Positions 36,404 through 38,034 of a DNA stretch of 64,000 bases are shown in pieces (the stretch's first letter is position 1; each line of letters opens with the position of its first letter). The DNA lies in the sequence record MN850610.1; one strand, 5' to 3'. Made by a program: the position numbers and the translations under genes. Source of the DNA: Escherichia phage Andreotti. The notes below the pieces were generated by a model. The model did not search any database and was not told the origin of the DNA. It saw nothing but the letters and a program-made list of their open reading frames with translations.

Positions 36404-36562
36404 ATGTTCAGTACAGTCATTCTGTTTATACTGGTTGTCTTTGTATTGTCATACGTTGCAAGTAAGCTTTTGGACACATCTTTTGCAATGGGTGTCTTGT
36501 TTACAATCTTTTGTTTCGTGACACATATAGCTATCAGAACTTTTTTTATAAAAAGTTGTTGA
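36404..36562 (+). CDS. small hydrophobic membrane protein (52 aa, not in ORF track)
   Basis: hand-translated MFSTVILFILVVFVLSYVASKLLDTSFAMGVLFTIFCFVTHIAIRTFFIKSC. Confidence 0.3.
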   Translation: MFSTVILFILVVFVLSYVASKLLDTSFAMGVLFTIFCFVTHIAIRTFFIKSC

Positions 36563-36586
36563 CATAGAAAATTTGGTGAGTATACT
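36559..36586 (+). promoter_or_regulatory. sigma70-like promoter TTGACA-N16-TATACT directly upstream of the first repeat array
   Basis: TTGACA at 36559-36564, TATACT at 36581-36586. Confidence 0.45.
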
Positions 36587-36619
36587 GAGCAGCATAAACC
36601 AACGGGTACTCACCAACAT

Positions 36620-36926
36620 CACTTAAGAGTCTTTGAAAAGGGTTTTTTAAGTGATGTGGGGCGAGGCTCGGTGAGGTGGGGTAAGGCATAGTGCGGTGCT
36701 GTTTGGTATGGGTAGTTAGTCTCAGCTACATTAAAATGAGACTTACCTTTTTAAAAGGTCTTTAAACAGGGTCTTTTAATAAGGTTGTGTGATGTGATGT
36801 ATGGTGCTGTGGAGTTTGGTTAGGTCCGGTCAGGTATGGTATGGTGATGTGAGGTATGGGTGGATGGTAGTAGCCACGTTAAAAATCTACCAAGTTTCTA
36901 AAGAGTCTTCTGTTGAGGGTTCTTTA
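36620..36926 (+). repeat. repeat array A: two full modules (hairpin-1, G/T-rich pentamer tract, hairpin-2) plus a terminal hairpin-1 copy
   Basis: hp1 36620-36653 and 36745-36785; GT tracts about 36654-36715 and 36786-36865; hp2 36718-36743 (then T5) and 36866-36891; hp1 variant 36899-36926. Confidence 0.75.
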
Positions 36927-36967
36927 CAAACAACTTAACAATCAACTAAAGTGTGGAGCTAAATGCT

Positions 36968-37555
36968 ATGAAACTGTTAAATATCAAAATCACTGGTACT
37001 CGTCCTTTCCTGAGCCATGCAGATACTCTGTCAGACCCATTAAACCCTCTGACAAAATATCACAAGTCTCTGTCCAGTAAACGTAAAAAGACTGACGAAG
37101 ACTATGCGCTCTTAGCAGAAAGTCAACTGGTAACTTCTTGCTACTACGATGACCAACTAGGTTTTGTTATGAACGGTGAGATGATTGAGGCTTGTATCAA
37201 GTCTGGTGCAAAACTCAATAAACTTGGTAAGGTAATTGACCGAGCCATTATGCTGACAGATGTAGTCTTCCCAATGACTATCAAGAACTGCCCAGCAAAC
37301 CCACAAGAACTTGCTAAGAATCCAGACTTTATCTATGCTAAGTCTGTTAAGATTGGTACAGCACGAGTTATGAGCTACCGTCCAATCTTCCGTGACTGGT
37401 CTGTAGAGTTCGGTTTGATGTTCGATGAAGAGCAAATCACCAAAGAAGAACTCTTGATGGTTCTGGAAAATGCTGGTAACCTTTGTGGTGTAGGTGATTG
37501 GCGTCCACGCTTTGGTCGTTTTTCTGTAGAAGTTATTTCAGAAGGTAACGTTTAA
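36968..37555 (+). CDS. hypothetical protein (cassette gene 1)
   Basis: ORF between the two repeat arrays; start set to in-frame ATG 36968; no recognisable motif. Confidence 0.5.
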
Positions 37556-37557
37556 TT

Positions 37558-37998
37558 ATGAATACAAAAGCATTAGCAGCAAAGTTTAGTTACGGTGACA
37601 CTGTATCACACTCTGAGATGGATACCTTCTTAGGTATTGTGAAGCCAACTTATCAAGGTGACATTGTTAAGTACGAAGATGAAATGAAGGCTTATGCGCT
37701 TACACGTCTAAACCGACTTGAGAAGTTTATTGAGAAGCTTCTTAAAGAAGAGAAGATTTATCTGGTTGCTTCAATGGGTGTTGGTTATCGTGTGGTTGAG
37801 CCTAAGCATCAAGCAACTATTGCAAAACGCAAAATGTCTGGTAAGATTGGTCGTGCTTTAAAGCAAGCCACTCAAGCGATTGAGAATGTGAACACTATGG
37901 CACTTAGCCATCAAGAACGTTCACGACTAATTGAACAGCAAAACCACTTAGCTGCTATGAAAGCTAACATTAACAAGCAACGTAGAAAACCTTTCTAA
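37558..37998 (+). CDS. hypothetical protein (cassette gene 2)
   Basis: 2-nt spacing to gene 1; basic C-terminus; followed by a terminator. Confidence 0.5.
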   Translation: MNTKALAAKFSYGDTVSHSEMDTFLGIVKPTYQGDIVKYEDEMKAYALTRLNRLEKFIEKLLKEEKIYLVASMGVGYRVVEPKHQATIAKRKMSGKIGRALKQATQAIENVNTMALSHQERSRLIEQQNHLAAMKANINKQRRKPF

Positions 37999-38011
37999 GT
38001 TGACTAGGTAG

Positions 38012-38034
38012 CCTCTTCGGAGGCTCCTTTTTAA
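38012..38034 (+). terminator. intrinsic terminator (agcctc-ttcg-gaggct plus T5)
   Basis: GC hairpin with T-run 14 nt after cassette gene 2 stop. Confidence 0.55.

Follow-up and report, generated by a model that had tools for sequence, protein, structure and literature searches.

Two small genes of Escherichia phage Andreotti (MN850610.1) lie between two arrays of short repeats, and the question that they raise is what genes and repeats do together. We addressed it in a stretch of 64,000 nucleotides of this phage (hereafter the window). A preliminary description, made from the sequence alone, had placed the genes 2 nt apart, had recognised no motif in either product and had proposed a self-contained unit of unknown function, possibly an RNA-plus-protein system, insulated by the repeats (array A upstream, array B downstream). 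The coordinates of both genes (table 1) were confirmed, and so was the RNA-plus-protein system: the genes are vipr and vap1, and the arrays encode guide RNAs (vrRNAs). The arrays are not insulators, however, but the targeting part of the system, in the form of five vrRNA genes, and the function is not unknown, having been published in 2026 for the near-identical locus of phage SUSP1. We hold with high confidence that positions 36559-38472 represent a complete type II Viral Interference Programmable Repeat (VIPR) locus of a Felixounavirus, whose guides are aimed at a satellite.

The product of the first gene matched, over its full length, PDB chain 36pp_D, entitled 'SUSP1 Vipr protein' (sequence search of PDB; E = 2e-128, 98% identity), and is 97.9% identical to the Vipr of phiSUSP1 in IMG/VR (locus L015). 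A RAMP-type G-loop can be read in its sequence, and it keeps 13 of the 14 RNA- or DNA-contacting residues named in the cryo-electron microscopy (cryo-EM) preprint (H17, K33, R39, E71, M72, K82, G87, K88, R138, C173, D177, W178, and R179). The preprint assigns 'T175' to the pyrimidine pocket of Vipr (10.64898/2026.04.26.720927); because residue 175 (window 37490-37492) is a valine both in the window protein and in the deposited chain, the preprint probably contains an error here. The absence of any recognisable motif, reported in the preliminary description, was borne out for both products, which have no family in Pfam, NCBIfam, or PADLOC and fall in PHROGs into families of unknown function and nothing else. 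Of the profile and structure comparisons proposed there, the profile libraries and the fold of the second protein were uninformative, but the PDB sequence match identified the first gene as vipr. Six distant homologues of Vipr (37-39% identity), from metagenomic viral contigs, all adjoin same-strand GGYNN arrays, which upholds the linkage between cassette and repeats that had also been suggested.

VIPR as a system is already known from two bioRxiv preprints of April 2026, which deal with the near-identical SUSP1 locus. The discovery paper describes a minimal RAMP protein (Vipr), an accessory gene (vap), and vrRNAs made of 9-16 YNNGG repeats and a structured 3' tail (10.64898/2026.04.26.720920). 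By cryo-EM, one Vipr protomer occupies each repeat, sequestering GGY and presenting NN (10.64898/2026.04.26.720927). The NN bases pair with double-stranded DNA, every third target base being skipped, and the resulting R-loop triplex represses transcription (10.64898/2026.04.26.720920, 10.64898/2026.04.26.720927). For SUSP1, formation of the ribonucleoprotein (RNP), binding with a 1-nt skip, repression of green fluorescent protein (GFP), and phage defence were shown experimentally, the evidence comprising small RNA sequencing, pull-down, electrophoretic mobility shift assays, GFP repression, and cryo-EM (10.64898/2026.04.26.720920, 10.64898/2026.04.26.720927). In the phage of the window, expression of RNAs of ~100 nt, their co-purification with Vipr, and binding and repression by the RNP would be expected from its near-identity to SUSP1.

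The second gene is vap1, since its product is 99.3% identical to that of the gene in the corresponding place of SUSP1 (L015). The basic C-terminus mentioned in the preliminary description is indeed there (KQRRKPF). A gene of ~150 aa also follows vipr in five distant loci (the sixth Vipr locus was a duplicate), and hhalign aligned it to Vap1 with 92% probability and an E-value of 7.5e-7, while a word-based homologue search with Vap1 returned only three proteins. The single-sequence AlphaFold model of Vap1 is of moderate quality (pLDDT, the predicted local distance difference test, of 68), and a Foldseek search of PDB with this model gave nothing below E = 0.2; the top weak matches were winged-helix regulators, a resemblance that is not significant and may be taken as a hint only. 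In SUSP1, vap1 enhances the VIPR effect (10.64898/2026.04.26.720920, 10.64898/2026.04.26.720927), and Vap1 is, according to the preprint, a probable DNA-binding helper.

A scan of the whole window found exactly five arrays, two upstream of vipr and three downstream of vap1, all on the plus strand. The pattern (GGTNN)4GGT, with at most one mismatch, matched 23 times, always on the plus strand and always inside 36813-36855 or 38073-38389, against zero matches expected from shuffled sequences. The locus therefore has the two-gene layout of type II, with vipr, vap1, and intergenic same-strand vrRNA genes on both sides. Units were defined by placing the arrays in a 5-nt register; the same counting applied to SUSP1 vrRNA1 gave 12-13 units, in agreement with the 12 seen by cryo-EM (10.64898/2026.04.26.720927). 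Sampling of 22 Felixounavirus loci (the window and 21 others) yielded 87 vrRNAs, 66 of them unique. Measured over these 66, information amounts to 1.0, 1.9, and 1.5 bits at the three positions of GGY and drops to 0.07 and 0.12 bits at the two of NN: NN is hypervariable and GGY is conserved across the 22 loci. Guide sets thus differ largely between phages with a Vipr 97-99% identical; guides A2 and B1, for instance, are absent from the 21 other loci.

Table 1. Coordinates of the VIPR locus, its neighbours, its targets, and the related orphan junction. Positions are those of the window unless another sequence is named (L numbers are our locus identifiers); MFE, minimum free energy; z, z-score of the folding energy.
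Feature	Position	Strand	Details
Promoter of vrRNA-vipr-vap1 operon	36559-36586	+	sigma-70 type; TTGACA-16-TATACT, 11/12 consensus positions
Extended hairpin before vrRNA A1, class H1	36613-36660	+	stem CAUCACUUAAGA/UUUUAAGUGAUG; MFE -20.3 kcal/mol, z = -5.3
vrRNA A1	36650-36747	+	12 GGY-NN units 36650-36709; tail T1 36710-36747
Inter-vrRNA extended hairpin, class H2	36744-36786	+	MFE -12.8 kcal/mol, z = -3.5; covariation
vrRNA A2	36783-36895	+	15 units 36783-36857; tail T2 36858-36895
Hairpin after vrRNA A2, class H3	36895-36936	+	just upstream of vipr ribosome-binding site; MFE -10.2 kcal/mol, z = -1.8
vipr	36968-37555	+	195 aa; minimal RAMP protein binding guide RNA; GGAG ribosome-binding site 8 nt upstream
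vap1	37558-37998	+	146 aa; VIPR accessory protein; 2 nt after vipr
Intrinsic terminator-like hairpin and U-tract after vap1	38010-38032	+	stem 38010-38025, 6 bp, UUCG loop, then CCUUUUU
Extended hairpin before vrRNA B1	38024-38066	+	z = -3.0; 5' arm formed by CC and U-tract of the terminator
vrRNA B1	38063-38170	+	14 units 38063-38132; tail T3 38133-38170
Inter-vrRNA extended hairpin, class H1	38166-38209	+	z = -4.7
vrRNA B2	38200-38297	+	12 units 38200-38259; tail T1 38260-38297
Inter-vrRNA extended hairpin, class H2	38294-38335	+	z = -2.8
vrRNA B3	38332-38424	+	11 units 38332-38386; tail T4 38387-38424
Terminal hairpin and T-run closing array B	38421-38472	+	hairpin 38421-38467; inverted repeat I1; MFE -17.8 kcal/mol, z = -4.7
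ATP-dependent DNA ligase	35261-36400	+	Pfam
Hydrophobic open reading frame	36404-36562	+	52 aa, phrog_22006; between ligase gene and VIPR promoter
Satellite element	L028 ~6000-17400		further copies in L029-L032 and L034-L037
Target sites of guide B2	L029 8020-8054; L030 7979-8013; L028 10845-10879		
Felix O1 orphan vrRNA junction	NC_005282 57632-57913 (L039 5633-5914)	- (L039)	also in L040-L045

Each array ends in a tail of 38 nt, of which there are four sequence types. When 21 distinct tails are aligned without gaps, columns 3-6 pair with 17-20 and columns 8-15 with 28-35, the arrangement of an H-type pseudoknot. Pairing holds in 89% of the cells (100% in the 4-bp helix 1 and 84% in the 8-bp helix 2), whereas sliding of the 3' partner lowers it to 25-43%. 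Changes on both sides occur in 9 of the 12 pairs, and the observed covariation was reached in none of 500 shuffles. The vrRNAs have no Rfam entry yet: a search of 36559-38472 against Rfam 15 gave no family, even at E <= 1.

These features bear on an alternative in which the arrays are DNA iterons or centromere-like sites, bound by a plasmid-type pair of partition or stability proteins. Parts of the vrRNA arrays are in fact annotated as DNA repeats in the GenBank records of phages KhF3 (KT184315; 'direct repeat sequence4 possible binding site of StbAB') and wV8 (NC_012749; 'DR_4'), a period of 5 bp places two units on each helical turn, and the products of two small neighbouring genes could form a binding pair. 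Yet every array lies on the same strand as the genes, and the base-pair changes in the tails are compensatory, as is typical of structured RNA. The NN positions, hypervariable and matching a satellite under a gapped code (see below), are not what a fixed DNA-binding site would lead one to expect. Moreover, the first gene product has 98% identity to an RNA-guided RAMP protein of solved structure and is not of ParM/ParR type, and neither protein has a Pfam match or resembles a partition or stability family (actin-like or ParA ATPase, adaptor). We therefore give this explanation practically no credence.

Another possibility is that the arrays act as a sponge or regulatory RNA, binding a protein through triplets spaced by 2 nt and guiding nothing to DNA. 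GGY triplets 2 nt apart, in 11-15 copies, do resemble the architecture of TRAP sites, and Vipr does bind GGY triplets (10.64898/2026.04.26.720927). Such an RNA would have no reason, however, to differ in its spacer dinucleotides between near-identical phages to the point of hypervariability, nor to match one satellite family specifically under a 1-nt-skip rule; in SUSP1, DNA binding is programmable through NN, and reprogrammed NN bases change the target repressed in vivo (10.64898/2026.04.26.720920). A sponge thus appears very improbable. DNA iterons and a TRAP- or CsrA-like sponge had been early candidates of this analysis, and both were dropped given the PDB match and the matches between NN and the satellite.

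If the arrays are VIPR guides, the question becomes what they target. The satellite of the SUSP1 clade shares structural genes with the phage, and 18 of the 20 assignable guides of this clade target it (10.64898/2026.04.26.720920). We located it by blastn of the baseplate-hub region of the window (51211-52008) and its neighbours against complete Escherichia coli genomes. A chromosomal gene annotated 'phage baseplate protein' matched with 90-96% identity over ~560 bp in 474 of 5426 complete genomes. It belongs to an element of ~11 kb in which two serine recombinases, one small and one large, accompany the hub gene, a tape-measure gene, and several small genes; at least four insertion sites are seen (yciI/tonB, ymdF/wrbA, lafU/dinB, and a site beside yecN). 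The nine satellite copies examined yielded no Vipr homologue.

The five guides were then scanned against five satellite loci, each with 10-20 kb of flanking chromosome, with skip lengths of 0 to 3. Only a skip of 1 nt yielded outliers, all inside the satellite, while skips of 0, 2, and 3 scored 15-19. Guide A1 matches the satellite large serine recombinase gene at 21 of 24 NN bases, A2 the zinc-ribbon region of the satellite recombinase (26/30), B1 the tape-measure gene in antisense (24/28), and B2 a satellite gene of 107 aa (22/24). None of 200 permutations of unit order reached the scores of these four guides. In the target genes of A1, A2, and B1, it is the third codon position that is skipped. 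Guide B3 matches 18 of 22 bases in the first satellite set and 19 of 22 in a satellite variant from IMG/VR, an agreement of 82-86%. The two B3 sites are homologous and cover the -10 region and the start of a promoter of TTGACA type that closely precedes the first gene of the main satellite operon, a position that fits repression. All five guides can thus be attributed to one widespread satellite of E. coli, the fifth by a site on its operon promoter, and the window adds a further natural VIPR locus to those described.

A search of IMG/VR with the full B3 guide as an exact pattern gave a single 22/22 match, at positions 9008-9039 of an 11.9-kb contig of 33% GC (L033; IMGVR_UViG_3300025889_002739). 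This contig has no similarity to the satellite or to the phage, and the match was set aside as a B3 target; given an AT-rich pattern, a very large collection, and an unrelated contig, it most likely arose by chance. One satellite copy (L030, from E. coli RL465) carries a 9-unit vrRNA of its own at 3871-3915 on the minus strand, with no vipr gene in the satellite. Its tail is T2-like and differs from that of the phage by extra, covarying changes in helix 2 (UUGUCG / CGAC). Satellites with their own vrRNA have been reported (10.64898/2026.04.26.720920).

Several points weigh against a complete VIPR locus directed at the satellite. B3 is the weakest of the five guides and stands barely above background, its 18/22 score being reached by 4 of 200 permutations, and the base skipped in the B2 target is the second of the codon and not the wobble base. 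None of the nine satellite variants is matched perfectly by any guide, the best matches reaching 87-92%; because these matches are imperfect, the real targets in natural hosts could be other variants. The DNA-binding role of Vap1 comes here with no significant fold match, the two preprints (10.64898/2026.04.26.720920, 10.64898/2026.04.26.720927) are not yet peer-reviewed, and, for the phage of the window, we infer expression of the five vrRNAs, read-through at 38010-38032, and processing. One might accordingly argue that VIPR serves here mainly to regulate phage or host genes, or to fight other phages or prophages, rather than the satellite: in other clades it targets prophage regulators and other VIPR loci (10.64898/2026.04.26.720920), and the mobile elements scanned for the imperfect matches above were the nine satellite variants. 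On the other hand, none of the five guides has a self-target above background in the 64-kb window, the best matches of all five lie in the satellite and not in flanking E. coli or prophage DNA, and the preprint maps the guides of the SUSP1 clade to the same satellite. A role directed away from the satellite is therefore improbable, and we retain the satellite as the target.

With regard to expression, the sigma70-like promoter of the preliminary description holds: it is conserved in relatives, with a match in 20 of the 21 related Felixounavirus loci by pattern search, identical in sequence in 19. Its -35 box is overlapped by the final codons of the 52-aa open reading frame (ORF) at 36404-36562; Felix O1 does not have this ORF, and the promoter follows there almost directly after the ligase stop codon. 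The hairpin with U-tract that had been described as an intrinsic terminator after the second gene exists as well (-13.6 kcal/mol; kept in 19 of the 21 related loci), but it does not end the unit, since three vrRNAs lie beyond it. Nor is its 3' arm (38020-38025) reused by the first hairpin of array B, as had been thought: the shared stretch is the CC and U-tract after this arm (38026-38036). By promoter scan and inspection, we found no separate sigma-70 promoter for array B and no promoters within the inter-vrRNA hairpins, so expression of array B is credited to read-through or processing. The promoter at 36559 would thus drive the whole unit: transcription would pass the modest terminator (38010-38032) into array B and presumably end at 38421-38472. 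The terminal hairpin there is AT-rich, with 13+5 bp and a T-run after it. A terminator and a promoter are interleaved at this place: the promoter of the next gene (38440-38468) sits in the loop and 3' arm of the terminal hairpin, with its -35 box in the loop.

Two features of the locus lie outside the discussion in the preprint texts: covarying hairpins on either side of the vrRNAs, and orphan vrRNAs in phages that have no vipr. As to the former, six hairpins bracket the vrRNAs, five of which have stems of 15-19 bp, loops of 3-5 nt, and z-scores of -2.8 to -5.3 by RNA folding. The weakest, at 36895-36936, has a stem of ~12 bp and the same upper motif as the others (GAGUCUUC..GAGGGUUC). The upper stem is conserved in sequence (GGUCUU / AGGGUC, with G.U pairs; GUCUUU..AGGGU in the hairpin at 36613-36660). 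The lower stem falls into three classes, with compensatory changes at six positions among 43 unique copies, and pairs at 89% of positions in register against 36-61% with one arm slid. These pairs were counted by script; MAFFT mis-registered the arms between stem classes. Since the mature vrRNA of ~100 nt consists of repeats and tail, the flanking hairpins must be removed, and they are probably a processing or maturation signal of type II arrays. Neither the text of 10.64898/2026.04.26.720920 nor that of 10.64898/2026.04.26.720927 mentions type II maturation, biogenesis, or RNases; hammerhead ribozymes are described between the vrRNAs of VIPR types I and V (10.64898/2026.04.26.720920). By analogy, the hairpin may be a substrate of a host RNase III-type enzyme or an element recognised by Vipr or Vap1, and in this respect a functional analogue of the CRISPR (clustered regularly interspaced short palindromic repeats) repeat. 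It may also serve as a recombination joint for the shuffling of vrRNA cassettes.

The preliminary description had counted repeats found in the absence of the cassette as evidence against their linkage. Such repeats do occur, in Felix O1 and in ~110 other records, but as the same modules at the same locus, and do not appear to break the linkage. Neither vipr nor vap1 was found anywhere in the Felix O1 genome, yet a single vrRNA of 12 units, its tail intact, remains in the 282-bp gap between ligase and ORF87, together with the promoter and with the first and the terminal hairpin. At a coverage of at least 80%, this junction is present in 110 of 230 Felixounavirus records, and vipr-vap1 in 117. 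The vipr-less records retain one or two vrRNAs with pseudoknot tails, and because these are the same modules at the same genomic locus, the orphans look like derivatives of the full locus. Their guides vary between vipr-less phages. Out of nine orphan guides, three agree with the E. coli satellite at 88-96% of their NN bases, as well as none of 200 permutations does. One of these guides belongs to phage SWJM-02, in whose whole genome no Vipr homologue was found. The Felix O1 guide had nothing above background in the E. coli satellites. The orphans may be recent deletion remnants, guides acting in trans with the Vipr of a co-infecting phage, or decoys against the Vipr of rivals. That, jointly, the hairpins are a maturation signal or recombination joint and the orphans are trans guides or decoys rather than dead remnants is a tentative proposal, which we put forward with rather more doubt than confidence. 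Hairpins and orphans nevertheless raise questions on the maturation and exchange of vrRNAs and on their possible use in trans.

These data suggest the following scenario. Host RNA polymerase starting from 36559-36586 would transcribe two vrRNAs, vipr, and vap1, and then three further vrRNAs by reading through the weak terminator. The vrRNAs of ~100 nt, each made of pentamers and a 3' pseudoknot cap, would be freed from the precursor, probably by cleavage at the flanking hairpins. As shown for the 98%-identical SUSP1 protein, a Vipr protomer would settle on each pentamer, bury GGY, and present NN; the filament, again as in SUSP1, would read double-stranded DNA with every third base skipped, and the R-loop triplex would block transcription. 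Judging from the computed matches, the five guides would direct it to the integrase/recombinase gene of the satellite, its tape-measure gene, a small gene, and the promoter of its main operon. The system would then be the phage's weapon against a satellite that carries copies of its tape-measure and baseplate-hub genes, and Vap1, the probable DNA-binding helper of the preprint, would enhance the effect.

The source of the window is a Felix O1-like myovirus of the genus Felixounavirus. Region 36400-38520 matched 230 phage records, with an identity of 97% to Escherichia phages ekra and heid, and the cassette is 95.7% identical at the DNA level to KT454805.2. The order of the locus, all on the plus strand, is ligase, 52-aa ORF, promoter, array A, vipr, vap1, terminator-like hairpin, array B, and terminal hairpin. 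The next gene follows the terminal hairpin, with dihydrofolate reductase and thymidylate synthase genes further downstream. Both vipr and vap1 are labelled hypothetical in all 117 records that carry them, and public annotation thus lags behind the description of VIPR. The locus of the window is mainly confirmatory, and shows that a VIPR system can be detected starting from raw sequence. Upstream of the ligase lies an ORF (33509-34024) that overlaps the DNA polymerase gene at its stop codon and, judged by eye, resembles a homing endonuclease of HNH and AP2 type (HIDHKDGDGLNN..., AP2-like C-terminus). In the annotation of the related phage SWJM-02, the polymerase gene is split in two at the equivalent position.

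Compared with the type II VIPR of SUSP1 (PDB 36pp), the locus of the window, a member of the same VIPR clade, occurs in the same phage genus and in the same genomic slot (between ligase and td), and shares the promoter, the terminator, the GGY-NN vrRNAs, the four types of pseudoknot tail, the flanking hairpins, and the target family of satellites. It differs in having two vrRNAs (A1 and A2) upstream of vipr-vap1 where SUSP1 has one, three being downstream in both (10.64898/2026.04.26.720920), and in its set of NN guides.

VIPR is a minimal form of RNA-guided DNA recognition, with one protein of ~20 kDa, one guide of less than 100 nt, and no protospacer adjacent motif (PAM), and has been proposed to be older than CRISPR (10.64898/2026.04.26.720920, 10.64898/2026.04.26.720927). 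Like the Cas7 filaments of class 1 CRISPR-Cas systems (Cascade, Csm, and Cmr), it relies on a RAMP fold (RRM core, G-rich loop, and thumb) that polymerises on a guide RNA, with a thumb that flips bases out periodically and an R-loop on the target DNA (10.64898/2026.04.26.720920, 10.64898/2026.04.26.720927). Unlike them, it has no repeat-spacer array, cas1/cas2, Cas6, nuclease, or PAM, its guide information resides in two of five nucleotides, one-third of the target bases is skipped, and the whole is a phage-encoded locus of two genes. In agreement with this distinction, repeat analysis showed only pentamer tracts, tails, and hairpins and no repeats of 25-40 nt with spacers; cas1/cas2 and further cas genes are not among the neighbours (DNA polymerase, HNH endonuclease, ligase, small ORFs, dihydrofolate reductase, and thymidylate synthase), and the two cassette proteins had no Cas match in Pfam, NCBIfam, or PADLOC.

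A closer parallel in purpose is offered by vibriophage ICP1, which carries a full type I-F CRISPR-Cas system, with nuclease and spacer acquisition, aimed at the PLE satellite. In both cases, a lytic phage would use an RNA-guided system against a chromosomal satellite that parasitises it. VIPR, in contrast, acts by repression and has no nuclease here, and we know of no acquisition machinery for it. The manner in which the guide RNA is read recalls still another type of system. TRAP of Bacillus subtilis reads (G/U)AG repeats, and CsrB is bound through GGA. As in VIPR, the TRAP oligomer reads conserved triplets with 2-nt spacers in a single-stranded RNA. The spacers of TRAP sites hold no information, however, and it is the bound RNA that is attenuated, whereas the spacers of VIPR serve as the guide, and what they target is foreign DNA.

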